Shown here in pieces: positions 11,692-56,222 of a stretch of DNA of 64,000 nucleotides. Source of the stretch: a virus; IMG/VR virus record IMGVR_UViG_3300025674_000016, positions 64,001 to 128,000 of that record. One strand, 5' to 3'. The translations under genes were made by a program, and so were the position numbers. A model generated the notes under the pieces. The model did no database searches. It was not told the DNA's origin and was given only the letters and a program-made list of their open reading frames with translations. Within the stretch, counting starts at the first letter, position 1; each line of letters starts with the position of its first letter.

Positions 11692-11850
11692 GTGAAAATT
11701 AAAAAAGGCAGATTGCGACAAATAGTTAAAGAAGAATTAGATAAGTTTGTTGCAAAAGTAAACACTCGTACCCTGAACGAAAGCAAATCAACCCCAGATA
11801 AAATTATAGCTCTTTTGGAAGAACTAGAAAAAGATGGCAATAAAAACTAA
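11692..11850 (+). CDS. 52-aa leader-bearing small protein (not in ORF track)
   Basis: GGAGG RBS, GTG start; MKIKKGRLRQIVKEELDKFVAKVNTRTLNESKSTPDKIIALLEELEKDGNKN. Confidence 0.7.
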   Translation: MKIKKGRLRQIVKEELDKFVAKVNTRTLNESKSTPDKIIALLEELEKDGNKN

Positions 11851-12304
11851 TAATGATGGCGTTATTGTACATATTACCAATGTATTTAGAGAACGCGGCA
11901 CTTCCTTTGGGTTGTCGTCGTTACTCAACAGTCCATTGGCTTTGCGAAGGTTGTTGGAGGAAGTTTTGGGAGTAAATTGGAACGTAACTTGTCTTGAGGG
12001 GTCTGGCTACTCGAACGTATCCGATACCTATAGCATTAAAGAGGCTGATGTAGTCTTGCTTGTGGATACTTCTGCGAATCCAAAACACATAACTCTACCA
12101 AACCCCTCAACTGAAAATGGAAGAATAATTGTTGTTAAAGACTCTGGCGGTCTTACTTGGAAAAATGCGATAACAATCTCAGGCAGCCTGCAAAATAGTG
12201 CAACAGAGATCCAAATCACTTCTGAGTTTGGAGGGGTTGCATTAATTTCTGGGTGTACGGATAACGCTAATTTTCACAAATGGTATCTGATTGGATCAAT
12301 ATGA
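11834..12304 (+). CDS. putative fibre/virion protein
   Basis: ITLP...GRIIVVKDSGG...NAITI pattern typical of phage fibre domains. Confidence 0.5.
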   Translation: MAIKTNNDGVIVHITNVFRERGTSFGLSSLLNSPLALRRLLEEVLGVNWNVTCLEGSGYSNVSDTYSIKEADVVLLVDTSANPKHITLPNPSTENGRIIVVKDSGGLTWKNAITISGSLQNSATEIQITSEFGGVALISGCTDNANFHKWYLIGSI

Positions 12305-12313
12305 GGTAGTTAT

Positions 12314-13054
12314 ATGACTCAATATACTTCGCATGTATCGCAAAGTGCAACAACAATTTATGTAAAATCTGCTAGTGGTTTTGATGACGACACTACCTTT
12401 GGATCTTCACCTGCAAATAATCATGAAGTTACAGGAACTGTAAGATTTGCAAATAGGGTGTTTATAGAGAATCAAAATCTATATGTTACGGCAGACGCTG
12501 AAATAAATCAAGACCTGACTGTAGATAGTACAATTTACGGATCTAGAGTTTCGATTGGACCTAACAATTCGACACCACTAGTAAATTTAGAAATACACCA
12601 TACCGGAACAAAAGATCCAACGAATCTTTTTGCTGGCAACGGTGGTGGTGAATTTGTTTATTTTGGCACAGGGTCATTGACATTTGGAAAAATCTATTAC
12701 CTAAACTCGGACGGAGGCTGGGATGCTGTAAATGCCAATGGCACAGGGTCATTGGGCTCTTCAAGTGCTGGCAACCAATCTATTCTCGGTATAGCTCATG
12801 GGTCCAACCCTGCAACCAGTGGATTAATGATAAGAGGCTGGTGGAACCTTAATGGTGCTTCTCCGTATTTTACGGGTTCTTGGGTTACGGGATCGGCTGT
12901 ATATATTTATTCAGGATCAGCAGCAGATGCTGGAAGATTAACTGCAACTGCGCCAACAGGTGCCGGGGCTTATGTGAGGATTGTTGGCTACTGCACAGAT
13001 ACCCCAAATGTAATCTACTTCGATCCAGATAAGACATGGGTTGAAATTTCGTAA
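12314..13054 (+). CDS. putative fibre/decoration protein
   Basis: Gly/Ser/Thr-rich; C-terminal APTGAGAYVRIVGYC..IYFDPD. Confidence 0.45.
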   Translation: MTQYTSHVSQSATTIYVKSASGFDDDTTFGSSPANNHEVTGTVRFANRVFIENQNLYVTADAEINQDLTVDSTIYGSRVSIGPNNSTPLVNLEIHHTGTKDPTNLFAGNGGGEFVYFGTGSLTFGKIYYLNSDGGWDAVNANGTGSLGSSSAGNQSILGIAHGSNPATSGLMIRGWWNLNGASPYFTGSWVTGSAVYIYSGSAADAGRLTATAPTGAGAYVRIVGYCTDTPNVIYFDPDKTWVEIS

Positions 13055-13065
13055 TAGGTGACAAA

Positions 13066-13254
13066 ATGATGAAACAAATCGCAGACAGATATTTAGATAA
13101 GTTTATGAGCCGCAAGCTGCTTGTTTGGCTTACAACGACAGGATTCCTTATTTCTGGCCATGTTACAAACGAACAGTGGATGGCAATTGCCCTAGCTTAT
13201 GTAGGCGTTCAGGGCTTCGCAGATATTGCGGTAAGGTGGAAGGCAGGAAAGTGA
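13066..13254 (+). CDS. putative holin
   Basis: 62 aa; SRKLLV followed by two hydrophobic helices; basic C-terminus. Confidence 0.55.
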   Translation: MMKQIADRYLDKFMSRKLLVWLTTTGFLISGHVTNEQWMAIALAYVGVQGFADIAVRWKAGK

Positions 13255-13661
13255 TTACTTGGTTGGGCACAAAACTTTTTCTCAAGAAAGCCTGGGCTTG
13301 GCTAAAAACTTACTGGTATATTCCACTCTTAGCCTCTTGGTTGATTATCGCTTGGCTTGTTTTTAGGAAGGACAATGCAGAAGATATTCTAGATGTTTTT
13401 TACGAAGCCGAGCAAAGCTATAAAAAGCAGATAGAAGCCATCGAGAAAGCCCACGCAGAAGAAATAAAAAAAAGAGACAAGGCCCTTTCCAAGTATCAAA
13501 GAACAATCGAGCAACTAGAAAAAGAATTGGAAAGGCGTAGAATGCACTTAAAAGATGCAGAGCGCGAACGAATCAGAGAACTCTCAGAAGAATTTAAAAA
13601 TAAACCTGATGAATACACAAAAAGAATTGCAGAGGAGTTTGGATTTGAATTTGTGGAATAG
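13251..13661 (+). CDS. membrane-anchored coiled-coil protein (i-spanin-like)
   Basis: GTG start overlaps the holin stop; N-terminal TM segment WYIPLLASWLIIAWLVF then a charged coiled coil. Confidence 0.45.
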   Translation: MITWLGTKLFLKKAWAWLKTYWYIPLLASWLIIAWLVFRKDNAEDILDVFYEAEQSYKKQIEAIEKAHAEEIKKRDKALSKYQRTIEQLEKELERRRMHLKDAERERIRELSEEFKNKPDEYTKRIAEEFGFEFVE

Positions 13662-14124
13662 TCTTAAAGTTTTAATTTGTGTGTCTTTGGTCTTGCTCAT
13701 TATAGCCTTCCCAATGGAGCTTTTAGCTCAAGACTTGGAAAAGCCGAGACCGCTGATAACAAATTTAAAAAAAGATGAGCCTGCTCCTTTTGATGGTGTT
13801 CTACTTGACTCTTGGGCCATGTCAGAAATCATGGCAGAGATGGAATACGATCAAAAAAGATTTGAATTAGAATTAGACTTTATTAAAAAGAAAAAAGATG
13901 CAGAATGTTCCCTAGAATATGAAACACTCAAAGCAAGCTTTGATAGTTTAAAATTTAAGCACAAGGAAGTGCTCGAAATCAAAGATACCGAAATAGAAAA
14001 CTTAAGAGAGATAACAACTGAAAAAAAAGATTATTCTACATTATGGTATGTGGGAGGTTTTATCTCTGGTGTCGCACTATCCGTTGGGGCAGCATATTTG
14101 GCATCGGGAGCGTTTGGTAAATGA
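13645..14124 (+). CDS. secreted/membrane coiled-coil protein (spanin-like partner)
   Basis: TTG start after AGAGGAG; N-terminal signal-like segment, coiled coil, C-terminal TM segment. Confidence 0.4.
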   Translation: MNLWNSLKVLICVSLVLLIIAFPMELLAQDLEKPRPLITNLKKDEPAPFDGVLLDSWAMSEIMAEMEYDQKRFELELDFIKKKKDAECSLEYETLKASFDSLKFKHKEVLEIKDTEIENLREITTEKKDYSTLWYVGGFISGVALSVGAAYLASGAFGK

Positions 14125-14312
14125 GCGCAATAAATGGAGTTGATATGGCAAATATTGGAAAAATAATGGGCATTGCTGTTTCCACTGGCACTGGCACTAG
14201 TACAGCGACCCAGACAAATCGTGGTGTAGCATTACCATCCACTAGGATTGTTACGCAGTTTAATATTCCGACCGCTGGCGCTTTTAGACCAGGCACATCA
14301 GATGGAACATAA
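14121..14312 (+). CDS. small hypothetical protein
   Basis: ATGA coupling to the upstream gene; 63 aa. Confidence 0.55.
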   Translation: MSAINGVDMANIGKIMGIAVSTGTGTSTATQTNRGVALPSTRIVTQFNIPTAGAFRPGTSDGT

Positions 14313-14321
14313 GAGGAAAAA

Positions 14322-15320
14322 ATGACATATCCATTACCTATTTTAACTTGGGAAAGAAGCGATATAAGCTCGTTTTCAAGTCCAACTGTTTTTGATATCT
14401 TGACATCCCTTAATAGTATTTTTGTAAGTTCTAGTTATTGGGAAGTAAAATCAACAGATATATCTATTACTGGGTCTTCCGATTATTATCTTGAGGTTGG
14501 GCCTATTACTAGCGCATCTTCTTCCTATGTTAACCAAAGAATTATTTTTGCTGGTGGTGCCAACCCAAATTCCATGTCAGTGGGATATACAGCGAATGCC
14601 AGCAGGCTCATGATTAACTACTGCCCAGACATAACAGGCCGAACAGAATCAGCAGCAAATTGGAAAACGGCAGATCCATTCTCTGGTTCTAGTATACCTG
14701 GTAAGGGCTTTGTCAAGCTAGGAGATACGTTTTCTACTATTACTCGTCTCTATGGCTTGATATGTCAAGAGGGGGTTATTTTAAATCTTAGAAAGGGGCT
14801 AGGGACTAACACTGCCTATCCATTCATGGCCGGTGCCCTTGTTGACCCCGGCCATGGAAACGGAGGGGACGCAAACAATCGACGTTGGATTTTGGCCTCT
14901 CAAGGAAGTTATGGAACATGGAATTCATCAACGCATGCTGCCATACCACAGACATCCGCCAATTTTTTTCTAAAAAACACAAGCACCACAAATGACTATC
15001 CTCACGCTTTTGTATGGAAAGAGTCTGACGACACTTGGGACTATAGTGTGGTGTGTGATACTGCGCACGATATCGAAGCAACATTGAGCAACAATAGAGA
15101 TATTGTTGATGACCAAGGATACATTGTACCACCACCAATGAGGGTTGTGGGGGGTAACGGCTCCCCAAATCGGGCTTACGGCTTTTTAAGGCAGATTTAT
15201 TTTTGTATTATTGGACAAGACGCAGTAGTAAAGCAAGGCTTAACGAGCAATGATTTATATTTTGTGTGGAGCCCGGTGAGTTCTAGTGACGGTGATGCCT
15301 TCATGGTAACTAATTTTTAA
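14322..15320 (+). CDS. putative virion/receptor-binding protein, paralog A
   Basis: Full-length similarity to 15333-16367. Confidence 0.5.
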   Translation: MTYPLPILTWERSDISSFSSPTVFDILTSLNSIFVSSSYWEVKSTDISITGSSDYYLEVGPITSASSSYVNQRIIFAGGANPNSMSVGYTANASRLMINYCPDITGRTESAANWKTADPFSGSSIPGKGFVKLGDTFSTITRLYGLICQEGVILNLRKGLGTNTAYPFMAGALVDPGHGNGGDANNRRWILASQGSYGTWNSSTHAAIPQTSANFFLKNTSTTNDYPHAFVWKESDDTWDYSVVCDTAHDIEATLSNNRDIVDDQGYIVPPPMRVVGGNGSPNRAYGFLRQIYFCIIGQDAVVKQGLTSNDLYFVWSPVSSSDGDAFMVTNF

Positions 15321-15332
15321 AAGGAGAAGACA

Positions 15333-16367
15333 ATGACATACCCACTACCTACTTTAACTTGGGAGATGAGTGAACAAGAAACTTTTTCAAGTCCAACTAT
15401 CTTTGATATCTTAACATCTCTTAATAATATTTTTACAAGCGCATCATACTGGGAGGTTAAAAATTCAAGCCTCGCATCGACCGGCTCTTCTGATCATTAT
15501 CTTGAGGTTGGACCTATTACTAGTGCCTCTGCATCTTACGCAGATCAAAGAATTATTTTTGCTGGCGGCGCCAACCCAAATACCATGGCATCATATTACA
15601 CACAGGTTTCCGACCGTTTAATGATTAATTTTTGCCCGGATATAACAAACAGAACACAGACAGCAGCAGATTGGAAAACAGCCGATCCATTTGATGGAGC
15701 AGACATACCAGGAACAGGCTTTGTTCAGCTTGGAACCTCATATAGCAGTATGAGTAGGATTCATGCGATCACTTGCCAAGAGGGGGTTATTTTGAATTTG
15801 CGAAGAGGAATTGGTAATAACACTGCCTATCCATTCATGGCCGGGGCTCTTGTTGACCCCGGCCACAGCAACGGAGGGGACGCAAATAATCGACGTTGGA
15901 TCTTGGCCTCTCAAGGGGGGGGCACGACGTATTCTCCATTTGGAACATGGAATTCATCAACGCATGCTGCCATACCACAGACATCCGCCAATTTTTTTCT
16001 AAAAAACACAAGCACCACAAGTAACTATCCTCACGCTTTTGTCTTAAAAACCTCCACTAATAGTTGGGACAGCAATGTAGTATGCGATACTGCGCACGAT
16101 ATTGAGGCAACCTTAAGTTCATTTAGAGACATCCTTGATGATCAGGGATACTTGGTACTTCCCTCAACTAGAGTAGTTAGCGGCAATCCAAAGTCTTCGC
16201 CAAGCTTAATGTACGGTTTCTTAAGGCAGATTTATTTTTGCATCAATGCTAGGGATAGAGAGTCTGGGCAAAGTTCGGATGGAGAAAACATATTTTTTGT
16301 ATGGGGGCCAGTTCAGGATGAAGCGTCTAGTCCTGCTGATTCTTTTATGGTAACAAACTTTTCATGA
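15333..16367 (+). CDS. putative virion/receptor-binding protein, paralog B
   Basis: Tandem paralog; 80 bp identical tract (15941-16020 = 14912-14991). Confidence 0.5.
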   Translation: MTYPLPTLTWEMSEQETFSSPTIFDILTSLNNIFTSASYWEVKNSSLASTGSSDHYLEVGPITSASASYADQRIIFAGGANPNTMASYYTQVSDRLMINFCPDITNRTQTAADWKTADPFDGADIPGTGFVQLGTSYSSMSRIHAITCQEGVILNLRRGIGNNTAYPFMAGALVDPGHSNGGDANNRRWILASQGGGTTYSPFGTWNSSTHAAIPQTSANFFLKNTSTTSNYPHAFVLKTSTNSWDSNVVCDTAHDIEATLSSFRDILDDQGYLVLPSTRVVSGNPKSSPSLMYGFLRQIYFCINARDRESGQSSDGENIFFVWGPVQDEASSPADSFMVTNFS

Positions 16368-16382
16368 CACAGCAAAAACAAT

Positions 16383-16766
16383 ATGAAAGACTACAATCAA
16401 ATAGCAAAATTTGAACAAGCCATCCAACAAAAGTATGGCGAAGAAGCAGTCCAAAATCCAAAAGCAAATTGGTCCGAGGACAAAGAAGAAGAATACTTAA
16501 ACCAAATCAAAAAGCTTCACAATAAACAAAACAAAAACAAAGAGGACAAAGACAAAGTAGAACACAATGGCTTTTTAATATCAAAAAAACTACTTAATAA
16601 AGACTCTGAGCGTCTTTGCCCAACGTGTAATACTTACTCATTTAGCATAAAAGACGATGTTTATATGAGCAAGTTTGAATGCTGTTTTGATTGCTATATC
16701 CAATGGGTCGAAGGCAGAGAAGAAAGATGGCTCTCAGGTTGGAGACCAGAAAAACAAAGTGCTTAA
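16383..16766 (+). CDS. hypothetical zinc-finger protein
   Basis: CPTC...CCFDC. Confidence 0.6.
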   Translation: MKDYNQIAKFEQAIQQKYGEEAVQNPKANWSEDKEEEYLNQIKKLHNKQNKNKEDKDKVEHNGFLISKKLLNKDSERLCPTCNTYSFSIKDDVYMSKFECCFDCYIQWVEGREERWLSGWRPEKQSA

Positions 16767-16781
16767 AAATGGGAGAATGTA

Positions 16782-17378
16782 ATGAAATTATTACTTGAAC
16801 GTTGGCGAAAATATTTGAATGAGCAGGATGAGCACGCGCTCTTAAATGAAGCTACAGATTTAGTAAAAAATGGCGAGAACATTATAATGTTTTCAGATTA
16901 TGCTAAGAAGCACATTGAGAGTGGCCACAAGAAACCCGGACTTGGTTCTATCTTTGCCGATTTTGACCTCTCTTTGGTTAGCAAAACTTTAGGCACGATC
17001 CCCCTAGAAGGGAATGGTGGAGTCTATTCAGTGGAAGTTCCGGGCGTTGGATATGATTTGGTGTTGCCAATGGACGAAGCCTTGCAATTACCGGACGCAC
17101 AGAAAACAGTCGTTACAAAAGAAGAACGCCAAGGCCCAGTTGAGGTTATTGGCATCAAAACCTCTAAGCCGCTTTCAGGGTTTTTGCAAAATAAGCTTTC
17201 AGTTGTTGTTAGACAAACAAAAAATATGCAATATGTACCCGATGATGTAAAAGAGCAAGTTGCTGATGCTGTCGCGCAAGGACGCGTCTATTCTGTTTTG
17301 AGCGCTTGGCCCGGACGAGGCGACGTGCCCCCTTCAAGCAAATGGGGAGAGGACTGGGCGGTAATTATACCTTCTTGA
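16782..17378 (+). CDS. hypothetical protein with MKLLLERWRKYLNE leader
   Basis: Leader contains LNE twice; body has KHIESGH..GSIF..VLSAWPG. Confidence 0.6.
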   Translation: MKLLLERWRKYLNEQDEHALLNEATDLVKNGENIIMFSDYAKKHIESGHKKPGLGSIFADFDLSLVSKTLGTIPLEGNGGVYSVEVPGVGYDLVLPMDEALQLPDAQKTVVTKEERQGPVEVIGIKTSKPLSGFLQNKLSVVVRQTKNMQYVPDDVKEQVADAVAQGRVYSVLSAWPGRGDVPPSSKWGEDWAVIIPS

Positions 17379-17405
17379 AAGAGAACTTAAATTTAGGAGA
17401 TTAAT

Positions 17406-17852
17406 ATGAAAATTACTAAATCAAAACTAAAACAACTTATAAGAGAAGAAATTTCAAAAGTTATTCCAGAAGTTTACTATCTGGAACCAAAGGGCAAGCC
17501 CAGAGCAGCGTATCAAGATTATGAAAATGAAGATTTTCAATATGAAAATGCCGCCAACATGCAAAATAGTGTTAGCAATATACTAGAGCTTCACAAAGAA
17601 CTATGGGACGACTTCTACGACATTGAAGAAGAAAGGACGGATAAAGTTGATTATGACCCTGACCCCGGTGGAGCAGGGACAGCAGATAAATACTTGGAAC
17701 GGATATATAGAGAAATGGGTGAACCATTTGCGTTTTTGGTTAGTAAATACTTGGAGAAAAACAAAATCCCAGCGGAGCAATTATCTAGTGACGTATTAAA
17801 TCCAGATGAGGATAGTCGAGACTACGAATATTATACTGATTTGCCAAAATAA
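17406..17852 (+). CDS. leader-bearing acidic protein (putative internal head protein)
   Basis: MKITKSKLKQLIREE N-terminus. Confidence 0.6.
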   Translation: MKITKSKLKQLIREEISKVIPEVYYLEPKGKPRAAYQDYENEDFQYENAANMQNSVSNILELHKELWDDFYDIEEERTDKVDYDPDPGGAGTADKYLERIYREMGEPFAFLVSKYLEKNKIPAEQLSSDVLNPDEDSRDYEYYTDLPK

Positions 17853-17876
17853 ATAAAACTATACGGAGCGCTTTCA

Positions 17877-18383
17877 ATGAAAATTACTAAATCTAGATTG
17901 CAGCAGATTATAAAAGAAGAAATCCAAGCTGAAATGAAAAAAAACATAGCTTATTCTGGTGTTGTTCTTGACGATAAAAGCGTAGAAAAATTAAAGGCAG
18001 CAGCTAAAGCCATAGGTGTGCCTGAAGGTTTTGTTTTTAAAACAAATGCTGGGGCTCCTTTACCCCACCACATGACAATTGTGGCTTTTAAACCAATTGT
18101 TTACTCAAAAGGAAATAAATCGCATGATTTTAGTGAACATTATCCTGTTGGTGGAGAAGTAACGCTAACAGTAACACACATTGGATTTGATAATGAAGCA
18201 ATGGCTGCCAAAGTTGATCCGCCTGGCCCAATATCTACTAAAAGAATTAACTTTCCTCACATCACAATAGCTATCCGCGAAGGGGGGAAGCCTTCTAATT
18301 CGAATGATATACTCGATAAAAATTTCCAAAAAGTCGAAGAGTTTGAAGTTACGGGCACAGTACAAGAGGTTCCACAAGGATAG
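17877..18383 (+). CDS. 2H phosphoesterase-family protein with MKITKS leader
   Basis: Two HxT motifs (PHHMTI, PHITIA) about 63 aa apart; YSGVVLD and GGKPSNSN resemble the tRNA-ligase CPD-like 2H subgroup. Confidence 0.75.
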   Translation: MKITKSRLQQIIKEEIQAEMKKNIAYSGVVLDDKSVEKLKAAAKAIGVPEGFVFKTNAGAPLPHHMTIVAFKPIVYSKGNKSHDFSEHYPVGGEVTLTVTHIGFDNEAMAAKVDPPGPISTKRINFPHITIAIREGGKPSNSNDILDKNFQKVEEFEVTGTVQEVPQG

Positions 18384-18412
18384 AAGTAAAAAGGCCAATT
18401 GGAGGAGAAAAA

Positions 18413-19752: not shown

Positions 19753-19756
19753 TCCA

Positions 19757-21322
19757 ATGCTAACAAAAAAAGAAATACTTAAAGAATGTATAAAAGCCGG
19801 TAAAGATCCGGCTTATTTTATTAACAACTACGTTAAAATATCTCACCCAATGGAAGGTCTAATCCCCTTCAAAACCTACGATTTTCAGAAGCAACTGCTT
19901 CACGATTTTAAAGATTATAGATTTAACGTTATCCTAAAGGCAAGGCAGTTGGGCATTTCAACAATAACTGCTGCATATGCCGCTTGGCTTCTTCTGTTTT
20001 ATCGAGAAAAAAACATTGTTGTTATGGCAACAAAGTTTGGCACAGCGGGTAACTTAGTTAAAAAAGTTAAATCAATAATCAAGAATCTGCCACCTTGGAT
20101 TAGAGTTGCAGATATAACAATCGATAACAGATCCAGCTTTAAGCTTTCAAACGAATCTGAAATCAAAGCTATTTCTACTTCTGGAGATGCTGGTCGTTCC
20201 GAAGCTCTTTCTTTGTTGATTATTGATGAGGCCGCTCACGTCGATGGAATGCAAGAACTTTGGACTGGCTTGTACCCAACACTATCAACTGGTGGTCGAT
20301 GCATTGCCCTATCTACTCCCAATGGTGTTGGAAACTGGTTTCATAAAACATATATTGATGCTGAATCTGGCGTCAATGATTTCTTTCCAACCAACCTACC
20401 TTGGGATGTTCACCCCGATAGAGACAAAGAATGGTTTGATAAAGAAACAAGAAACATGTCTCGCAGGCAAATTGCTCAAGAGCTTGAATGCAATTTCAAC
20501 ACAAGTGGAGAGACAGTATTCCATTCAGACGATATACAAAGAATAAATGAAACTGTATGCGATCCCAAGTATAGAACTGGTGTTGATAGAAATCTATGGA
20601 TCTGGGAAGAATACAAACCAACCAACACCTATATGATCTCAGCAGATGTTGCAAGGGGTGACGGGGCAGATTTTTCGGCTTTTCTTGTTTTCAAGTTGGA
20701 AACGATGGAAGTTGTGGCTGAGTATCATGGAAAGGTAACATTGGACTTTTTTAGCGACCTACTCAACAATACTGGCAGGGAATACGGCAACTGTCTAATG
20801 GTGGTGGAGAACAACTCAGTAGGCTTCTCAGCACTAGAAAAACTAAAAGAGAAGGGCTACCCAAATATTTACTATTCTATTAAATCAACACACGAGTATA
20901 TCGACTCAACACAGGCCCAGTACAACAGCAATGCTGTTGCTGGCTTCTCAACAACAAACAAAACACGCCCTCTTATAATAGCAAAGCTAGAAGAGTTCGT
21001 AAGAAATAAACTAGTTACTACATACTCTAGAAGAATGATGTCTGAAATGACAACGTTTATCTGGAAGAACGGAAGACCCCAAGCTCAGCGAAGCTATCAT
21101 GACGATTTAATTATGTCAATGGCTATCGGATGTTGGGTGCGGGATACCGCTTTGGTTGTGAATAAACAAGAAATTGAATATTCAAAGGCTAGTTTGTCGT
21201 CTGTTTTCAAAAAGTCAACGACTTTGAACACAAGTATCCCTGGCCAAAGAGGTTTTAAATCTGTCGAAAAAACTGATAGTATAAAGGAACAAAAGCAATT
21301 TCTTTGGCTTTATAAAGGATAA
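19757..21322 (+). CDS. terL: terminase large subunit (T4 gp17-like)
   Basis: KARQLGIS Walker A, IIDEAA Walker B, STPNG coupling motif, ADVARG and HDDLIM nuclease motifs. Confidence 0.95.
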   Translation: MLTKKEILKECIKAGKDPAYFINNYVKISHPMEGLIPFKTYDFQKQLLHDFKDYRFNVILKARQLGISTITAAYAAWLLLFYREKNIVVMATKFGTAGNLVKKVKSIIKNLPPWIRVADITIDNRSSFKLSNESEIKAISTSGDAGRSEALSLLIIDEAAHVDGMQELWTGLYPTLSTGGRCIALSTPNGVGNWFHKTYIDAESGVNDFFPTNLPWDVHPDRDKEWFDKETRNMSRRQIAQELECNFNTSGETVFHSDDIQRINETVCDPKYRTGVDRNLWIWEEYKPTNTYMISADVARGDGADFSAFLVFKLETMEVVAEYHGKVTLDFFSDLLNNTGREYGNCLMVVENNSVGFSALEKLKEKGYPNIYYSIKSTHEYIDSTQAQYNSNAVAGFSTTNKTRPLIIAKLEEFVRNKLVTTYSRRMMSEMTTFIWKNGRPQAQRSYHDDLIMSMAIGCWVRDTALVVNKQEIEYSKASLSSVFKKSTTLNTSIPGQRGFKSVEKTDSIKEQKQFLWLYKG

Positions 21323-21324
21323 CA

Positions 21325-23373
21325 ATGGCTAGACGAACTATAAGAGCAAGAAGAAACCAACACAACCCTAGAAACCCCACATCTGAACTTTTTAAAAGAC
21401 TGACAAGGCTGCTATCTGGGCCTATTGTTAGTTATCGCAATCAAGCAGAGCGTCAATTGTCTCGTCGCAAGATGGACAAATATAGGTTTAGATCTGCGAG
21501 TGGGCAACAATTTAAAAAAACAACACACAATCCACTGGATTATTTGCACTCTCACATCCTTGCAAACCAAGGCAGAAGCGAGCGGTACGCAGACTTTAAT
21601 CAGATGGAGTATACGCCTGAGATTGCCTCGGCTCTTGATATTTATGCAGACGAGATGTCAACAAGCTCGGATCTCAGACAACTTTTAAAGATTGAGTGTC
21701 CTAATGAAGAGATCAAAAGTATTCTTCACAGCCTCTATTACAATGTCCTGAATATCGAACACAACATGTTCGGATGGTGCAGGACAATGTGTAAGTTTGG
21801 GGACTTTATTCTTTATCTCGACATTGATGAAAATCACGGTGTCAAGAACGTTATTGGCCTTCCATCGCATGAAGTTGAGAGAATTGAGGGTGAAGATCCC
21901 ACAAACCCAAACTATATTCAATTTCAATGGAACTCAGGAGGTATGACTTTTGAAAATTGGCAGGTTGCACATTTCCGTATTCTTGGAAATGATAAGTTCG
22001 CTCCCTATGGAACTTCTGTCCTTGACCCTGCTCGTCGCATTTGGAGACAGTTGACTCTCCTTGAGGACGCAGTAATGGCTTATCGTATTGTTCGATCTCC
22101 TGAGAGGAGGGTTTTCTATATTGATGTAGGTGCAATTCCCCCCAATGAGATCGAGCAGTATATGCAAAAGATTGTAACTCAAATGAAGCGCAATCAGATT
22201 GTCGATACTGACACTGGTAGAGTTGACTTGAGATATAATCCTCTTTCAATTGAGGAAGACTATTATATTCCAGTTAGAGGCGGCAATTCTTCAAAGATCG
22301 AAACACTTGCAGGCGGCTCTTATACTGGCGATATTGATGATATTAAGTATCTGAGAGATAAATTATTGTCGGCCTTAAAAGTGCCTGGCCCCTATTTGAT
22401 GAACAATACTGAAGCCGCTGATGATAAAACAACCCTAGCACAAAAAGATATTAGATTTGCTAGAACAATCCAAAGGCTACAAAGATCTGTTATCTCTGAA
22501 TTGGAGAAGATCGGAATTATTCATCTTTATGTTATGGGGTACAGAACAAAAGATCTTATCTCTTTTAAGTTAAAGCTCAACAACCCATCACAGTTGGCAG
22601 AGATGCAAGAGCTAGAGCATTGGAAATTAAAGTTTGATATTGCTTCCTCCGCAACCGAAGGATACTTCAGCAGACAGTGGGTCGCAAAGAACATCTTTAA
22701 CTTGAGTGATGAAGAGTTTATTCGCAACCAGAGAGAAATGTATTACGACCGCAAGTTTGATGCTGACCTTGAGTCTGCTGCTTCTGCTGCAACCGAGGTA
22801 ACTCAACGAGAATATCAAGGCATGCAGGACTTTGCAGGCAAAGGCGACCAAGCAGGATTTGGTGAAGATAAAGGAGGTGATCTCGGCCTAGGAGATGAAG
22901 GCGGCGGTCTTGATTTAGGAGGTGATCTCGGCGGCGAAACACCAGCAGGAGAGGAAGGTGACACCAAAACACCAGCAGAAGGCGGAGATGAAGGCGGCTC
23001 TCCTCCGGGCGATGACCTTTTATTAGCCAAACCAAGCAAGCGAGATGATGATGTCAAAGTCAAGACAGACGCCTATGGCAAGGTGATAGCTAGAAAAGCA
23101 AAAAGATCAAAAGGCTGGTACAAGCCGGTTCATTACGATCAGAGAGAAAGTTCAGGCGCGAGATATAAAAATAAAAAATCAAAATATGCTGGCGATATGG
23201 GATTGACTTCCAAGACAATAACACCTGGCAGATACCAATTGGGCAGAATTTCTAAGGGCATAACTGAGGGCCAAGATACTAGTTATAGGGAAGAAGAATT
23301 GCTTTTTGAAGCTAGTAGTGAAATTAGAGATTTGATCTCACAGATGGAGAAGCGCGATGAAACTAAAACATAA
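21325..23373 (+). CDS. portal protein (T4 gp20-like) with long acidic Gly-rich C-terminal extension
   Basis: LLEDAVMAYRIVRSPERRVFYIDVG, EDYYIPVRGG, DIRFARTIQRLQ. Confidence 0.95.
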   Translation: MARRTIRARRNQHNPRNPTSELFKRLTRLLSGPIVSYRNQAERQLSRRKMDKYRFRSASGQQFKKTTHNPLDYLHSHILANQGRSERYADFNQMEYTPEIASALDIYADEMSTSSDLRQLLKIECPNEEIKSILHSLYYNVLNIEHNMFGWCRTMCKFGDFILYLDIDENHGVKNVIGLPSHEVERIEGEDPTNPNYIQFQWNSGGMTFENWQVAHFRILGNDKFAPYGTSVLDPARRIWRQLTLLEDAVMAYRIVRSPERRVFYIDVGAIPPNEIEQYMQKIVTQMKRNQIVDTDTGRVDLRYNPLSIEEDYYIPVRGGNSSKIETLAGGSYTGDIDDIKYLRDKLLSALKVPGPYLMNNTEAADDKTTLAQKDIRFARTIQRLQRSVISELEKIGIIHLYVMGYRTKDLISFKLKLNNPSQLAEMQELEHWKLKFDIASSATEGYFSRQWVAKNIFNLSDEEFIRNQREMYYDRKFDADLESAASAATEVTQREYQGMQDFAGKGDQAGFGEDKGGDLGLGDEGGGLDLGGDLGGETPAGEEGDTKTPAEGGDEGGSPPGDDLLLAKPSKRDDDVKVKTDAYGKVIARKAKRSKGWYKPVHYDQRESSGARYKNKKSKYAGDMGLTSKTITPGRYQLGRISKGITEGQDTSYREEELLFEASSEIRDLISQMEKRDETKT

Positions 23374-24172: not shown

Positions 24173-24174
24173 AA

Positions 24175-25226: not shown

Positions 25227-25832
25227 ATGTCAGATATAAACAAATATTTAATTCGAGAGTTCTATGAACTTTGCGATGGTGGTAAATGCGAAGACTTTTT
25301 AACGGAGTCTGAAAAAAGAAGAGTCAGGGAGGGAAAGGTTACTATTCTTTCTGGGAAACTTCAAGAGGCGGAGTGTCTTAACGGCAACAAGCGTATTTAC
25401 CCCATGAACATATTAAAGCGAGAAGTTGAAAACTATCGTAAATTTGTCGAACAACGCAGGGCAATGGGCGAGCTAGATCACCCCGATTCAAGCGTTGTCA
25501 ACCTTCAAAATGTTTCACACATTGTTACAGATATCTGGTGGGACGGAAAGAAAGTAATGGGCAAGATTGAAGTCCTGAACACACCAAGCGGCAATATCCT
25601 TAAGAATCTTGTTGAGGCTGGTATCAAGATGGGCATCTCCTCTAGAGCACTCGGCAGCGTTACCCAGAGAAATGGCAAGACATATGTTGAGGATGATCTA
25701 CAACTAATTTGTTTCGATATGGTCAGCGAACCTTCGACACCAGATGCCTTTATGTTAAAAGAACATAGAATGAGAAATTCTAATTACGAACCCACAAACA
25801 TTCACAACTTATTGGACAGCATACTTAAATGA
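25227..25832 (+). CDS. prohead core protease (T4 gp21-like)
   Basis: NGNKRIYP, GELDHP, GISSRALGS, FDMVSEPS. Confidence 0.93.
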   Translation: MSDINKYLIREFYELCDGGKCEDFLTESEKRRVREGKVTILSGKLQEAECLNGNKRIYPMNILKREVENYRKFVEQRRAMGELDHPDSSVVNLQNVSHIVTDIWWDGKKVMGKIEVLNTPSGNILKNLVEAGIKMGISSRALGSVTQRNGKTYVEDDLQLICFDMVSEPSTPDAFMLKEHRMRNSNYEPTNIHNLLDSILK

Positions 25833-26245
25833 AACGAAATGAATTAAAAAAAGTTTTAAAACCTCTTATTAAAGAGTGCATTAAAGAGGTTATTTTTGAA
25901 GAGGGAGTTTTATCTGGCTTGATATCAGAAGTTCTAAAAGGAACGTCCAGCGCACAACTGGTTAGTGAAGCCCCGCAAAAGAAAGTTCAAAAACCAAGGG
26001 CAAAGTCAATAGAAAAGCGGCCAGCCAGACAAGATAAGTTAAATGAAATGAGAAGATCACTCACCGAAGCTATCGGCAAAGATGCTTACGGTGGCGTGGA
26101 TATCTTCGAAGGCGTTCAGCCTATTTCAAAAGCAGGTACACCAGGACCAGCGGCACCATCAAGTCCGCTGCAAGCCTACGCACCAAACGATGCGGGTGTT
26201 GATATCAGTGCGATATTCAACCCAAATTGGAAAAATTTAGTATAA
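25829..26245 (+). CDS. hypothetical protein, leader-like N-terminus
   Basis: MKRNELKKVLKPLIKECIKE..; LNE site. Confidence 0.6.
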   Translation: MKRNELKKVLKPLIKECIKEVIFEEGVLSGLISEVLKGTSSAQLVSEAPQKKVQKPRAKSIEKRPARQDKLNEMRRSLTEAIGKDAYGGVDIFEGVQPISKAGTPGPAAPSSPLQAYAPNDAGVDISAIFNPNWKNLV

Positions 26246-27006: not shown

Positions 27007-28011
27007 ATGAGTTCAATGCTAGAACAGGCTATTGTTGATGCTGCCGCACTTAAAGAAGCAGCATTGAAAAATGCCGAACAACAAGTTTTAGAAAGATATT
27101 CCAAAGATATAAAAGAAGCAGTGAATGCTTTATTGGAGCAGGACGAGCTGGAAGACGCGCCGCCCATGATGATGGAGCCAGAGCCCGTTATGGACGAAAT
27201 CCCCCCTGCTCCTGCCGCAGGCGAGAAGCTTTGTCCTTGCCCCGATGACGAAGAAGTTGTTGAATTAGATTTAGATAATCTAATGATGCAGGTCGATGAT
27301 GAAGAGCCAGATCCAGAAGATGCAATGGATCGAGAAGGTGTAGCTCAAGAGTTGGGCGATCAAGATGATCTTCTTGGTGGGGACTTAGGTGGCTTAGAAA
27401 CAGGCGACGAGGAAGAAGAAGGTCTTCAACTTGAAGAGAACATTGATATTGATGAATCAGATTTAATTGATCTTGTTGAGGAGCTTGTTTTCGATCACAT
27501 GTCGCAGCCTAGCGGAAACCCAACGGGCCTGCCTGTTGAGGATCTTCATAGAGAACAAGAGCTTGAGGAGCTAGCAAAGCAGATTCAACAAGCAAATGAA
27601 AAAAAGAAAGATCTTCAAGAATCACTTAAGGATTCAAGATCGGAGAACAATAAACTTAGAAGAACAGTTTTAAAACTAAAAGAAAAACTAGACGAAGCAT
27701 TGGTTTCCAATGCAAGACTAATTTATACAAACCGTGTGCTGGGGAACGACTCCCTGAATGAGCGACAAAAAGATAAAATTGTCGAAAAGATCTCCGAAGC
27801 ACGAACAATTGAAGAAGCCAAAATGATCCATGAGGCACTTCAAAGTGCAGTGGCGGGCACTTCCAAAAAGGAAGGTCCAAAATCACTGAACGAAGCAGTT
27901 TCACGTCAATCAACACAGGTTTTTTCACGTCGTCAACGATCCGAGACCAATCAGGTCAACGATCAATTTTTTAAGAAGATGCAGCGTTTAGCTGGCATCA
28001 AAAAGAATTAA
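27007..28011 (+). CDS. prohead core scaffold protein (gp22-like)
   Basis: Very acidic, coiled coil, many LxE sites, ends MQRLAGI; directly upstream of the capsid gene. Confidence 0.8.
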   Translation: MSSMLEQAIVDAAALKEAALKNAEQQVLERYSKDIKEAVNALLEQDELEDAPPMMMEPEPVMDEIPPAPAAGEKLCPCPDDEEVVELDLDNLMMQVDDEEPDPEDAMDREGVAQELGDQDDLLGGDLGGLETGDEEEEGLQLEENIDIDESDLIDLVEELVFDHMSQPSGNPTGLPVEDLHREQELEELAKQIQQANEKKKDLQESLKDSRSENNKLRRTVLKLKEKLDEALVSNARLIYTNRVLGNDSLNERQKDKIVEKISEARTIEEAKMIHEALQSAVAGTSKKEGPKSLNEAVSRQSTQVFSRRQRSETNQVNDQFFKKMQRLAGIKKN

Positions 28012-28027: not shown

Positions 28028-29767
28028 ATGAGCGTTTTACAAAAGTTAACCGAAGGCATTGTTAATCGTAACATCCAGAAAGAGGGCGAAGCTCTTCTCC
28101 AGAAGTGGGAGCAGACTGGTCTTCTTGAGGGTATGGATAACGAAAATGCCCGTTCAAACATGGCTGTTCTCTTGGAGAACCAGGCCAAAGAGCTTCTCCG
28201 AGAGGCTTCTTCTATGGCGGCTGGTGATGTCGAAGGCTTTGCCAGCGTGGCATTCCCCATCGTCCGCCGAGTCTTTGGTGGTCTTATCGCCAACCAATTG
28301 GTCTCAGTCCAACCTATGAGCTTGCCTGCTGGCTTGATTTTCTTCCTTGACTTTACTTATACCGATAGCCGCGCTGGTCAAACTGCCGGTGAGTCGGTAT
28401 ATGGTGGTAATGTTGTTGGTAAGGGTCTTGTCGATGGTGTGGACCTGTCTCCGACTGGAGATACGCAAGCGGGTGGTTTTTATGACCTTAGCACTGGCTA
28501 TAGTTCTCCAACTGGCTCTGTTTCTGTTACCACAGCAGCACCAGACGGCTCTACTGGTGATTTGCCAACTGTGCTAACTGATGTTGCAGTTAGTGCTCTA
28601 TCGGAAGCACAAAAAAAGGCCCTCCAGTACGACCCGGATATCCTAGCAGATGCAAGCTTGAAAGTCACAGTTCACAAGTCGCCTAACGCTGCTACTTCCG
28701 ATTTCCCAAACTTGAATCTAAATGCCCTGACTGCAATTGAGGCATCTGGTATTGATGGTGTTCTAGTGCGAAGGCTAACTAGAATTGATAAAAACGATAG
28801 CAACAAATTAGTTTTTGTAGTTATTAGGGACGCTGCGACACCAGAGGCGCACGGAGCTATCACCTTTAACTATCCGATGACAGACAAGTATGAAGCTAGT
28901 ACCGCCATTGGTTCTGTTGTTGGTAACGTTCCATTTGGCCTTGAGGGTGCAGATGATGTGTCTGGCGGTGATTTTGACGGTTCAACCCGCGATAGAATCC
29001 CAGAGATTGATATCAAGGTCGATTCTGTCAGCGTGACCGCTGTCACCAAGAAGTTGAAGGCCAAGTGGACCCCTGAGTTGTCTCAGGATCTTAATGCTTT
29101 CCACAACATGGACGCAGAAGTAGAGCTTACATCGATCCTTTCCGAGCAGATTGCTCTTGAAATCGATCAGGAAATCTTGAATGATCTTGTTAAGGATGCT
29201 ACTGCTGGCACATACTATTGGAGCCGTCGCCCCGGTCGCTTTGTTGATCGCGGCACTGGCGATGATATCAGCGGCCTTTCTAACGAATCTCTCTTGGGTG
29301 CAGATTTCACTGGCACAGTCAGTGAATGGTACGAGACCCTTATTGAGACAATCAACGATGTCTCTGCGCAGATCCACCGCAAGACTCTGCGCGGCGGAGC
29401 TAACTTCTTGGTCTGTGGTCCTGAGACCGCAAATGTCCTAGAGTTCACCGCTGGTTTCCGCGCTAGCGTTACCCACGATGCAGATACTGGCCAAGCCGGT
29501 ACTGTTAAGATCGGTGCGATCTCCAAGAAGTTCGACGTTTACGTCGATCCTTACTTCCCAAGAAACGTGGTTCTAGTTGGCCGCAAGGGCTCCAGCTTCC
29601 TTGAAAGTGGCTACGTCTACGCACCTTATGTGCCTCTACAGGTCACGCCGACTATCTTCGGTGTTGAGGACTTTGTGCCTCGTAAGGGCGTTATGACGCG
29701 CTACGCCAAGAAGATGGTGAGGCCCGACATGTACGGCTTGGTTGTTATCAAGGACTTCCTTGGCTGA
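28028..29767 (+). CDS. major capsid protein (T4 gp23-like)
   Basis: VQPMSLPAGLIF, KLKAKWTPELSQDL, EIDQEIL, YAPYVPL, PRKGVMTRYA. Confidence 0.97.
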   Translation: MSVLQKLTEGIVNRNIQKEGEALLQKWEQTGLLEGMDNENARSNMAVLLENQAKELLREASSMAAGDVEGFASVAFPIVRRVFGGLIANQLVSVQPMSLPAGLIFFLDFTYTDSRAGQTAGESVYGGNVVGKGLVDGVDLSPTGDTQAGGFYDLSTGYSSPTGSVSVTTAAPDGSTGDLPTVLTDVAVSALSEAQKKALQYDPDILADASLKVTVHKSPNAATSDFPNLNLNALTAIEASGIDGVLVRRLTRIDKNDSNKLVFVVIRDAATPEAHGAITFNYPMTDKYEASTAIGSVVGNVPFGLEGADDVSGGDFDGSTRDRIPEIDIKVDSVSVTAVTKKLKAKWTPELSQDLNAFHNMDAEVELTSILSEQIALEIDQEILNDLVKDATAGTYYWSRRPGRFVDRGTGDDISGLSNESLLGADFTGTVSEWYETLIETINDVSAQIHRKTLRGGANFLVCGPETANVLEFTAGFRASVTHDADTGQAGTVKIGAISKKFDVYVDPYFPRNVVLVGRKGSSFLESGYVYAPYVPLQVTPTIFGVEDFVPRKGVMTRYAKKMVRPDMYGLVVIKDFLG

Positions 29768-50123: not shown

Positions 50124-52044
50124 AAACTTTATCTTCATATTGTTCGCAGTCGCCTTCTTGTCTTGTCAAGAGGGTGGCAGGTCCGTTGAAACCCCCTGTG
50201 AGAAGGGGGATATTATGTTGTGTGATGGTGAGACAGTTGGCAACTGCGAGCCTGGATATCGTGTGTGTTTTGAGAATGTTTTGGACAATCCAGTAACAAC
50301 CTATTGGAGCGAATGTATAGACCGCAAAGACCCCGAAGAAGAACGCTGCAACTATAGTGATGACGATTGTGATGGTGAGATAGATGAGGGTGTTGCAAAC
50401 CTTTGTGGCAAGTGTGGTCTTGAGCCACAAGAACTTTGCAATAAAAATGATGACGATTGCGATGGTGAGATAGATGAAGGTTTCGCTGGGCAAAGAGAGC
50501 TTTGCAATGGTATTGATGAAGACTGTGACGGGGTAATTGATGAGGGTCTAAGCAAGCGTCAAGCTTGCGAGCCACCAAATGTTCAAGCAGGAATAATTTA
50601 TAATGATGACCCCGGCTCAAGGTCTTCTTGTTTAAGGGGCTGGACAGAGTGCAGAGAAGGCAGTTGGACACCTTGTGCAGAGTGGCAAGGACCAACGCCT
50701 GAAATCTGTGATGGCATCGACAACAATTGTAATGGCGACACAGATGAAATTGACGCACTTAGAAGGCCATGTGGATTTTCTAATATAGGGCAGTGCGAAT
50801 TTGGTATTGAGATCTGCTTTGACAACGATATTATCTGTGTTGATAGTGTTGGACCGCAAAATGAAATTTGCGATGGAATCGACAATGACTGCGACTGGTA
50901 TATTGATGAAGAATTAGCTCGTGAGTGTTCAACCATTTGCGGCGAAGGAGTGGAGAGGTGCCAAGAAGGCACTTGGATTGACTGCACTGCCCCACAGCCA
51001 GTTGCTGAAGTTTGTAATGGTGTTGATGATGACTGCGATGGCCTAGTGGATGAAGATATTTTTTGTGAGTGTCAAGCAGGTGCAATGCAGCCTTGTATTG
51101 CAGAGCCTTGTGGCTGGGGCACTCAAGTTTGTTTAGAGGAGGGAGTTTGGGATGTTTGTGTTGGCGGAGTTGTTCAAGCTGAGCTTTGCAATAATCACGA
51201 TGACAATTGCAACCAACAGGTTGATGAGAACCTTTCAAGACCGTGTTATGAAGGGCCTGAGAACACTCAGGGTGTTGGAGTATGCGTTGGAGGCATAGCA
51301 GAGTGCAGAGAGGGGGAGTGGCAAGATTGTGTCGGCCAAGTTGTTCCCAATCAAGAATTATGCGACGGCATCGATAACGACTGTGATGGAAACATTGATA
51401 ACCTTGAAAGATTTTTTGAAAAGGTCGATATGGTCTTCGTTGTTGATGTATCCGGTTCGATGAATAGTTTTATTGATTCTATAGCGACTGGTATCACAAG
51501 ATATGTGAGCAGTATTCGAGGGCAAAATCATAAATTTGGTTTGATTTTGTATGGATCAAACTTCTATACTGATTATGGAGAATCTATTTTATTTTTACAA
51601 CTCTCTGAAATAAGCGATCTCCTGCTTGCTTTGGCTAATATAATTCTTAGTGGACAAGATGAGCCTTCGATTGATGCGATTTTCTTTGCATCCAACCCAT
51701 CGAATGAGTTACAATTGGCCTGGAGATCAGACGCAACTCCAATTATTATTTTGCTTAGCGATGAGGAACCACAAACTAGGCTGTTTTTAACTCAACAAGA
51801 TTTACAGGGCTTAACAAGAACTTGTTTGCTGCCTGGTTGCAATTCGCAAACAAACGATAATTGGACAGACGGAGACCCACTTGAACTTTTTGCTTTTGTT
51901 GAGTCATCATCGATTATCTTTTGGGAAAGTGCAATATTCGCAGAAGGCAACAGAGTATTCAACATTCAGAGATTGCTCTTTGACGACATGCTTGAGGCAG
52001 ATTTAGAACTAATTTTCAGGGAGGTGTGCAGAGAAACAGAATGA
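50116..52044 (+). CDS. Cys/Asp-rich repeat lipoprotein with C-terminal vWA domain
   Basis: Signal peptide with lipobox FLSC; eight ExCxxxDxxCxxxxD repeats; MIDAS DVSGS. Confidence 0.8.
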   Translation: MNKNFIFILFAVAFLSCQEGGRSVETPCEKGDIMLCDGETVGNCEPGYRVCFENVLDNPVTTYWSECIDRKDPEEERCNYSDDDCDGEIDEGVANLCGKCGLEPQELCNKNDDDCDGEIDEGFAGQRELCNGIDEDCDGVIDEGLSKRQACEPPNVQAGIIYNDDPGSRSSCLRGWTECREGSWTPCAEWQGPTPEICDGIDNNCNGDTDEIDALRRPCGFSNIGQCEFGIEICFDNDIICVDSVGPQNEICDGIDNDCDWYIDEELARECSTICGEGVERCQEGTWIDCTAPQPVAEVCNGVDDDCDGLVDEDIFCECQAGAMQPCIAEPCGWGTQVCLEEGVWDVCVGGVVQAELCNNHDDNCNQQVDENLSRPCYEGPENTQGVGVCVGGIAECREGEWQDCVGQVVPNQELCDGIDNDCDGNIDNLERFFEKVDMVFVVDVSGSMNSFIDSIATGITRYVSSIRGQNHKFGLILYGSNFYTDYGESILFLQLSEISDLLLALANIILSGQDEPSIDAIFFASNPSNELQLAWRSDATPIIILLSDEEPQTRLFLTQQDLQGLTRTCLLPGCNSQTNDNWTDGDPLELFAFVESSSIIFWESAIFAEGNRVFNIQRLLFDDMLEADLELIFREVCRETE

Positions 52045-55067: not shown

Positions 55068-55471
55068 TGATGAATAGGTTTTACCAGAGACTTGTGGACA
55101 TTACGTCTAATGAGCGGTATTTTTACAGTGATTTCGATATCACTTTCGGAAAGCAGAAAGGGCCAAACCCAGATCCCATCGAGGTTCGTTGTAGTTTTCA
55201 AGATTTGGTAAAGCTTTGTGATGACATTGAATCTGAAGGGTTCACGGGAATCATTGAGTTGGACCCTAGAAGGCTTTTGTTTGGAGTTCGCTTCGTGACC
55301 CATGTCGGAGATCCCGATGAGATTGTAAAGGTTTTTTGTGACGTGAGGGGTATCCACCTCATCATCCAAAGCCTTAAATTGAGTTATCCCGATGTAGTCG
55401 AAGAATTTAACACTCTTTTTTCATCTGAAGGTGAGCCTTTCTTTTCCAAGTTGGCTTTGAGGTGGAGGTGA
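55064..55471 (+). CDS. hypothetical protein
   Basis: Coupled ORF. Confidence 0.55.
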   Translation: MMMNRFYQRLVDITSNERYFYSDFDITFGKQKGPNPDPIEVRCSFQDLVKLCDDIESEGFTGIIELDPRRLLFGVRFVTHVGDPDEIVKVFCDVRGIHLIIQSLKLSYPDVVEEFNTLFSSEGEPFFSKLALRWR

Positions 55472-55475
55472 TAAA

Positions 55476-55664
55476 ATGAAACCAGGTAATTTGGTAAAGC
55501 CTAAACACAAATACTCCTACAACGAAGCGGGGATTGGGGTATTGCTTGAAATAGAAAAAGGCTTTTATAGACATAATGATTATTTCCAAGATCGTTTGAC
55601 AATATATTGGCTCCACGGGGAGGTAACTAGAGAACCTGATTCTTATGTGGAGGTGATAAAATGA
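55476..55664 (+). CDS. small SH3/KOW-like protein
   Basis: MKPGNLVK..GIGVLLEI..IYW pattern; GGAGGTG RBS. Confidence 0.6.
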   Translation: MKPGNLVKPKHKYSYNEAGIGVLLEIEKGFYRHNDYFQDRLTIYWLHGEVTREPDSYVEVIK

Positions 55665-55894
55665 ATTGTGAAGATTGTGAAAAAGAAGTAAGGGCGGCAA
55701 CTGCTCCTATGTGGGTGACAATTGAACACCAAGCATTACAACTACGACAGATCTCTCAACTATGCTGGGAGATCGTAAATGAGTTGCAAGAAGCAGACAA
55801 CCTCCTAGTTGGTGAATACCCAGACGAGTTTTCAAAAGTCTTTGATATTGCAGGTGAAATCGAGGATTGGTTAGTGAGGACAAAGAAAAAATAA
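55661..55894 (+). CDS. hypothetical protein
   Basis: GGAGGTG RBS. Confidence 0.55.
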   Translation: MNCEDCEKEVRAATAPMWVTIEHQALQLRQISQLCWEIVNELQEADNLLVGEYPDEFSKVFDIAGEIEDWLVRTKKK

Positions 55895-55901
55895 CTATTT
55901 A
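55893..55901 (+). promoter_or_regulatory. isolated putative late promoter motif AACTATTTA
   Basis: 24 nt before the leader-bearing ORF at 55926, inside an otherwise non-structural region. Confidence 0.65.
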
Positions 55902-55925
55902 TATTCACCACAGGAGGGTAAGAAG

Positions 55926-56222
55926 TTGAAGATAATAAAGTCAAAACTAATACAAATAATTAAAGAAGAGCTTGATAAAGAGGCGGTGAGGTCAGAAAAG
56001 GAGGCGGCTGTCGATTCCTTGCTGGGCAGTAGGCCACTTACCATTCCTCAACTAGAGCTTCTTTTTCCAAATTCTGAAGCTGAAGATATAAAAAATATAG
56101 AAACAGAACTTAAAAAGTTTGAAGAATTTGACCGCGAAGGGTACAGAGAAGCCTTGCTTGACCTTCTTTATCAACAGAAACCTATTGACCCCGAAGGAAA
56201 CCCCTTGGAATTCTCCTCTTGA
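55926..56222 (+). CDS. leader-bearing protein (putative internal head protein)
   Basis: MKIIKSKLIQIIKEEL; GGAGG RBS. Confidence 0.65.
   Translation: MKIIKSKLIQIIKEELDKEAVRSEKEAAVDSLLGSRPLTIPQLELLFPNSEAEDIKNIETELKKFEEFDREGYREALLDLLYQQKPIDPEGNPLEFSS

Follow-up and report, generated by a model that had tools for sequence, protein, structure and literature searches.

A recurrent N-terminal leader on unrelated proteins of an uncultured marine T4-related phage: a candidate protease-removed head-targeting propeptide

The window analysed here, 64,000 nucleotides corresponding to bases 64001-128000 of a 155.7-kb IMG/VR virus record (IMGVR_UViG_3300025674_000016; estimated completeness 86%), comes from what is, by its sequence, an uncultured marine T4-related phage, and it encodes a T4-type head module with a large terminase (TerL), a gp20-type portal, a Peptidase_S77 prohead protease and a gp23-type capsid protein. 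Five unrelated open reading frames (ORFs) of the + strand, at 11692, 17406, 17877, 18413 and 55926, open with the same leader peptide, MK[IL]xKxxLxQ[LI][IV]KEE. A preliminary description of this DNA had reported a near-identical leader on these five ORFs, and the coordinates and starts are confirmed, with a strict regular expression and a hidden Markov model (HMM) of the leader in agreement; the first residue of 11692 (GTG) and of 55926 (TTG) is an alternative-start Met. The genes with this leader (class 1), the island that holds three of them and two further genes discussed with them are listed here.

11692..11850, + strand: class-1 leader protein, 52 aa; GTG start; HMM 29.3 bits; conserved in relatives L001 and L012
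16751..18795, + strand: hypervariable island, 2,045 bp, with four leader genes
16782..17378, + strand: class-2 leader protein (MKLLLERWRKYLNE...), 198 aa
17406..17852, + strand: class-1 leader protein, 148 aa; acidic orphan cargo; HMM 33.8 bits
17877..18383, + strand: class-1 leader protein, 168 aa; cargo resembles 2H/cyclic phosphodiesterase (tRNA_lig_CPD, E 1.4e-6); HMM 34.5 bits
18413..18799, + strand: class-1 leader protein, 128 aa; acidic helical orphan cargo; HMM 36.0 bits
19363..19752, + strand: conserved small protein directly upstream of TerL; decayed leader-like N-terminus, which the HMM does not detect
55926..56222, + strand: class-1 leader protein, 98 aa; TTG start; among replication genes; HMM 22.4 bits

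Over the whole 155.7-kb genome the strict expression finds precisely these five ORFs, and a looser 8-residue expression matches 9 sites, where each of 20 shuffles gave 0-2 (mean about 0.3). A genome-wide HMM scan, which the preliminary description had suggested, returns nine copies at 18.4-36 bits with a clear gap to noise, the next best match scoring 3.8 bits. These nine are the five window genes together with genome 2165, where a 498-residue ORF starts, an internal copy at genome 2888 in that ORF, genome 6229, and a mini-ORF at genome 3726 ("genome" marks positions in the whole record). Looser versions of the leader had also been proposed at 19363, 25829 and 16782, and the HMM detects none of the three. 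The resemblance of 25829 is by eye only, and 16782 belongs instead to a separate second class; orthologues of 19363 in relatives do bear clearer leaders, such as MKINKSSLENLVRKE and MKLGKNNLKDIIREQ. We also rejected the idea that the N-termini of 25829 and of the scaffold represent an ancestral leader, as the HMM lends it no support.

A degenerate DNA pattern for the leader, run on IMG/VR contigs, matched at least 118 stretches and gave 0 matches in 185,579 prokaryote genomes. With 2 mismatches allowed, the pattern was not found in the five cultured phages Mel-JY01, HTVC008M, S-PM2, Syn9 and P-SSM2, and because of this absence a suspected affinity to pelagiphages or cyanomyoviruses was dropped. 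A tblastn search of cultured phages with the 22-residue leader gave no match, the query being too short to inform. Pfam and PHROGs hold no family for the leader, and the literature on the leader string and on tags of metagenomic phages resembling the T4 capsid-targeting sequence (CTS) yielded no description of it. Across 198 loci, either related or fetched by the pattern, 282 of the 289 regular-expression matches lie directly after an ATG or GTG. The class-1 logo has the consensus MKITKSQLKQIIKEE[L/I/V], with a tag length of 14-16 residues and a sharp conservation boundary (residues 1-16 each exceed 2 bits; later positions stay below 0.9). Leader codons vary freely at synonymous sites, e.g. 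ATC/ATT/ATA, ACA/ACC/ACT and CTT/CTA/TTA, and it is therefore the peptide that is under selection. Each near-complete relative has 5-11 class-1 copies, and this genome has nine. A 32-position profile matches 14,607 representative proteins at E<=1e-3 among 1.84 billion; 268 of these fall below 1e-10, and those found among the listed top 150 hold two to four leader copies. On these sequence comparisons the leader is a lineage-wide, virus-restricted peptide.

Tabulating what follows the leader, another suggestion of the preliminary description, bears out that the cargo is unrelated: BLAST comparison of the sequences after the leader sorts 276 tagged proteins into 191 clusters. Pfam recognizes a domain in only about six of 150 cluster representatives (LRR, DnaJ, FliG_C, 2H phosphodiesterase, annexin-like and TipAS), and only 13 of the 150 match a PHROG, each time another family of unknown function. 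With the leader proteins as queries, the sole match in Pfam and PHROGs is the 2H-like domain of 17877, and phmmer with 17877 against PDB sequences found nothing. A YqbF HeH match on the leader proteins (E 0.026) lay below threshold and was rejected.

Comparison of related sequences places the tagged genes in hypervariable islands within the head module. The closest relative, L001, whose terminase is 92.5% and portal 85% identical to those here, has 9 bp in place of 16751-18795 between flanks of 97.6% and 84% identity, and other relatives have at this site one different leader gene or none. Among the 118 loci listed, for which the leader pattern was the sole criterion of retrieval, 109 have homologues in common with this genome; the 18800 homologue occurs in 56, the 16383 homologue in 55 and TerL in 46. 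Leader genes are therefore found mainly in the interval bounded by the 16383 and 18800 homologues, just upstream of the terminase, and sequence evidence supports an association of the leader genes with the head module. The interval from the protease to the 25829 homologue is a second hot spot. Conservation of the cargo genes among related phages is poor, as it is for T4-type CTS proteins, and this hypervariability appears, by analogy, to resemble that of the T4 internal-protein loci. The gene at 55926 had been placed among non-structural genes, and it is indeed surrounded by replication genes.

Two of the leader genes are preceded by a promoter-like motif.

11659..11667, + strand: promoter-like motif AACTACTTA, ending exactly 24 nt before the 11692 start
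55893..55901, + strand: promoter-like motif AACTATTTA, ending exactly 24 nt before the 55926 start

The spacing of AACTAYTTA, exactly 24 nt upstream of 11692 and 55926, is thus as first reported; the pairing of leader and late motif that had been built on it is not specific. Its core, CTAYTTA, has 34 forward copies, 15 of which lie 20-55 nt upstream of starts (1.5 expected), including those of the scaffold, adaptor, sheath and tube genes, and by its positions it is a general promoter-like element of structural genes. It stands within 45 nt of 21 of 282 leader genes, compared with 120 of 2414 background ORFs, and on these counts we rejected a specific pairing; in this genome, two of the nine leader genes have a copy of their own. 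The leader had further been taken for a moving DNA cassette. The first 37 nt of 17406 and 18413 are identical between unrelated flanks, which points to occasional intragenomic exchange, and nucleotide-identical leader pairs are about 7 times commoner within loci (4/43) than between them (47/3650). Some exchange of DNA therefore survives from the cassette proposal, while the leader is mostly kept by selection on the protein, most leaders differing from each other at synonymous sites. The description of the leader as amphipathic fares poorly, since its hydrophobic moment of 0.35 is reached by 24% of shuffles, and strong amphipathicity was rejected on that basis.

The second class, to which 16782 belongs, has the consensus MKLLFENWRKYLNE and occurs on diverse cargo in the same lineage. 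This genome has three members, MKLLLERWRKYLNE, MKLIFENWRRHLKE and MKKIIESWNDYLNE (window 16782; genome 7086 and 146103). Related loci, such as L140 and L155, give 42 matches, 41 of them right after the start codon, with up to 8 in one locus. Class 2 places [LIV]-x-E at residues 12-14, the same as class 1. A third class, MIKLKDLLTE, is present in a relative and has its L-x-E at residues 8-10. One 37-kb record, a fragment of a related phage (G037, loci L204/L205), combines 10 class-1 leaders with about 8 proteins starting MIKLKDLLTE and a 1,437-residue portal-containing ORF; the CheckV completeness of 97% given for this record looks wrong.

Inspection of the profile matches also revealed genuine in-frame internal leader copies that lack Met. 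The metagenomic proteins P0015, P0020, P0021, P0022 and P0027 have 2-4 complete leader copies spaced by ~100-residue modules, some of the internal copies being without Met. From their sequences, multi-leader proteins are possible polyproteins cut by the prohead protease, and internal copies without Met would be tolerable if each leader doubled as a cleavage site. In this genome, the 498-residue protein at genome 2165-3658 carries two leaders, one at its N-terminus and one internally at residue 243, with pentapeptide repeats (DNA-mimic-type fold) at the C-terminus, and its gene is followed by a chimeric leader mini-ORF at genome 3672-3776.

The proposed fate of the leader involves several genes of the head module, which is laid out as follows, with the adaptor and tail genes after it (pI, isoelectric point).

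19757..21322, + strand: large terminase (TerL)
21325..23373, + strand: T4-type portal (gp20)
25227..25832, + strand: prohead protease, Peptidase_S77, gp21 type; at 25200/25227, true start 25227; conserved L-I-R-E at the N-terminus
25829..26245, + strand: conserved protein directly after the protease, by its position a likely prohead core component; N-terminus rich in I-K-E sites
26255-26518: ribosomal protein bS21 gene, within the head module, after the protease/25829 pair and before the scaffold
27007..28011, + strand: candidate and likely scaffold; acidic, pI 4.4; conserved N-terminal helix; C-terminal RMQxLAGIK; CTATTTA upstream at 26966
28028..29767, + strand: major capsid protein, gp23 family; conserved candidate cleavage site between ELLRE and ASSMAAG
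29874: head-tail adaptor
32529: tail sheath
35543: tail tube

In class 1, I12 is 97% and E14 100% conserved, so that I-K-E stands at a fixed distance from Met1. As in T4-type CTS proteins, the end of the leader fits the gp21 L/I-x-E motif in sequence, and the phage encodes an S77 protease together with a T4-type portal and capsid. The preliminary description had proposed a targeting peptide removed by this protease, and what stands of that proposal is the [I/L]-x-E end and the gp21-type S77 enzyme, with its true start at 25227. Among 44 long leader-bearing records, 31 contain an S77 protease; the three that are >=90% complete all do, and the remainder are fragments. In the capsid protein, ELLRE followed by ASSMAAGDVEGF is invariant in 15 relatives, a candidate site with the cut between L-R-E and A. 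The conserved L-I-R-E at the protease N-terminus resembles LIE-9 of gp21 (PMC9026906).

The CTS that T4's internal proteins carry is reportedly the subject of work by Mullaney and Black in 1996. In T4 the CTS comprises the first 10 residues, with targeting mainly via residues 4 and 7 and processing via residues 8 and 10, and the internal head proteins all enter the core through it (PMC9026906, PMC5694885). It is found on IPI, IPII, IPIII and Alt (PMC9026906, PMC5694885, PMC3012670), and it established the principle of one short protease-removed address on many unrelated cargoes (PMC3012670). The L-x-E of MIKLKDLLTE falls on the positions of the T4 processing residues 8 and 10. In T4, Asp at P1 is reported to have prevented processing while targeting went on. 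Three unrelated leaders thus obey one positional rule, as a processed propeptide predicts, and it is chiefly for this reason that we prefer a CTS-like reading. We consider it reasonably likely, from the sequences at hand, that the leader is a protease-removed head-targeting propeptide and a functional analogue of the T4 CTS, and the phage probably packs into its head a large and quickly changing set of proteins, in the way that T4 packs three.

In the mechanism that we propose, the N-terminal peptide would bind a component of the prohead core, either the scaffold (27007), the core protein (25829) or both, and the tagged protein would be enclosed as the shell forms. The S77 prohead protease (25227) would then cut after Glu14, between I12-K13-E14 and E15, freeing the cargo inside the head. 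Some cargo would probably leave with the DNA at infection, and other cargo may serve assembly alone. Because only the tag would be needed, the hot spots in the head module could gain, lose and exchange cargo genes freely. The sequences show the tag, the rule on its position, its confinement to viruses of a T4-related lineage with an S77 protease, the diversity of the cargo and its hypervariability.

Several observations weigh against this reading. Homology of the leader to the T4 CTS was not found, a direct comparison showing only the MK start and the I-x-E end in common, and because no Pfam or PHROGs family covers the leader either, it would be an analogue of the T4 CTS and not a demonstrable homologue. 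The [LI]-x-E motif is short and frequent by chance, the co-occurrence with the protease (31/44) was counted without matched leader-free controls, and the leader-like resemblance of the 25829 and scaffold N-termini has no support from the HMM. The residue after the predicted cut (P1') is Glu in 98% of leaders, whereas typical T4 sites carry small residues there. The cargo is mostly acidic (median pI 4.9; pI <6 in 76%), so that the tagged proteins are not the small basic DNA-associated proteins expected from T4, whose internal proteins are basic (PMC9026906). Finally, every member is known from sequence alone and has no close cultured relative, Mel-JY01 (38%) being without the leader. A far-reaching version, in which two or three interchangeable, protease-removed tags of 10-14 residues make head loading programmable in a widespread uncultured marine T4-related lineage for more than ten thousand cargo families, including polyproteins cut in the head, with most cargo injected as first-strike effectors of anti-defence or host takeover, strikes us as tentative and rather doubtful.

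It is possible instead that the leader is an assembly or docking helix of the prohead core or other virion parts, the tagged proteins being auxiliary subunits of scaffold or core, broken down and expelled as the head matures, or decorations attached elsewhere on the virion, with no injection. The acidity of most cargo, which recalls scaffold and core proteins (pI 4.4 for 27007), the location of leader genes within the head module, and the status of 11692 and 19363 as conserved core genes and not variable accessories all speak for this. However, 191 unrelated cargo clusters among 276 proteins, and differences of presence and absence between near-identical genomes, are hard to fit to structural roles, and some cargo consists of enzymes or binding domains (2H phosphodiesterase, LRR, DnaJ, pentapeptide repeats); we regard this explanation as unlikely. 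Somewhat poorer odds go to a leader that is unrelated to the capsid and acts in the infected cell as a helix that binds a membrane or a partner, as a tag for oligomerisation or as a regulatory (e.g. stability) tag of late accessory proteins. A short, Lys-rich, helix-like N-terminal peptide would suit such roles, as would the place of 55926 among replication genes, and packaging is itself a sequence inference. A hydrophobic moment no higher than that of shuffles argues against a membrane helix, though, and three unrelated leader classes repeat the pattern of an invariant Glu14 and Ile12 set at a constant distance from the N-terminus, as expected of a processed propeptide; half of the sampled loci, moreover, adjoin TerL and portal.

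We find it very improbable that the conserved stretch is selected as nucleic acid, either as a translation-initiation region (A-rich and perhaps tuned to the phage bS21, whose gene lies at 26255) or as a recombination cassette for gene shuffling. The 37-nt identity of 17406 and 18413, the chimeric mini-ORF and the excess of nucleotide-identical leader pairs within loci can be read that way. Yet the leaders keep their amino acids despite wide variation of synonymous codons at almost all positions, leader copies recur in frame inside long proteins, and conservation tracks residues and not nucleotides.

Taken as a head-targeting propeptide, the leader shares with the T4 CTS its short N-terminal form on unrelated proteins, its I/L-x-E end, a gp21-type (S77) protease encoded by the phage, and one address for many poorly conserved cargo genes in variable regions. 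It differs in sequence and length (MKITKSQLKQIIKEE, with 14 residues to the Glu, compared with the 10-residue T4 CTS), in the presence of at least two or three leader classes in one lineage, and in number, with 5-11 class-1 tagged genes per genome here and 3-4 in T4. It differs also in that the genes lie within the head module, that acidic cargo predominates, that polyproteins with several leaders are predicted and that at least 14,607 representative proteins match the profile, in a system that we know from its sequences only. What would be new relative to T4 is therefore the tag sequence and length, the several leader classes, the copy number, the head-module location, the acidic cargo, the polyproteins and, above all, the scale. 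In SPN3US and the phiKZ group, head-internal proteins (ejection and inner-body proteins) start with propeptides, which a T4-related prohead protease cleaves off after a small-motif-Glu site (PMC5694885, PMC10052503). The propeptides of these giant phages resemble the leader in their Glu-ending site, and their N-termini are conserved between diverged paralogues; unlike the leader, they are mostly >100 residues long and belong to paralogous families, and do not form one short tag that can be moved among unrelated cargoes. The cargo-loading peptides of encapsulins are short and sufficient to direct diverse cargo into an HK97-fold shell. In contrast to the leader, they usually sit at the C-terminus, bind directly to the shell protein and are not cleaved off, and they serve cellular nanocompartments, not virions.

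Were the tag a head-loading address, a simple signature would mark thousands of unannotatable marine phage proteins as virion-delivered and first to meet host defences, giving an enrichment handle for anti-defence discovery. The T4 CTS principle, which covers three or four proteins of a single model phage, would extend to a modular system across a whole lineage, and new short tags would become available for packaging foreign proteins into phage heads. If head loading were programmable in the wide sense given above, the tagged proteins would form by far the largest known reservoir of virion-delivered phage effectors, with the tag as the handle to find them. If the tag serves another function, few short peptides in viral dark matter are reused as widely (14,607 representative proteins), and this still calls for explanation.

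For the capsid protein, the nearest cultured match comes from Microcystis phage Mel-JY01 (38% identity), whose gene order from terminase to capsid is identical, followed by Rhodothermus phage RM378 at 32%; megablast of window 16000-28000 against cultured phages gave no match. The position of the bS21 gene is matched in Mel-JY01 and in relatives. An alignment of the scaffold (27007-28011) shows an invariant N-terminal helix, a hypervariable acidic linker, sometimes with CPCP, and the conserved C-terminal RMQxLAGIK. Paralogous 139-residue proteins (MS.FNYK.G...) are encoded at window 26518-26937 and genome 129030-129449; the latter has its own CTATTTA motif, and the motif nearest the former (26966) lies downstream of that gene.

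Elsewhere in the record, genome 1-1000 holds no plausible phage ORF and has no match in Rfam. Its long open frames give translations rich in Pro, Ala, Ser and Arg, which suggests GC-rich DNA, and the segment may be an assembly chimera. Two tandem paralogues at window 14322-15320 and 15333-16367 both start with MTYPLP(I/T)LTWE; their segment (14120-16383) and 11910-13052 are replaced in L001 and are probably host-recognition genes. At window 8267-11422, one 1,051-residue ORF joins a Mre11-type phosphoesterase to a Rad50/SMC-type ATPase (the functions of T4 gp47 and gp46), and window 50095-52044, among replication genes, encodes a 649-residue protein with MopE-type metal-binding repeats and a VWA domain.

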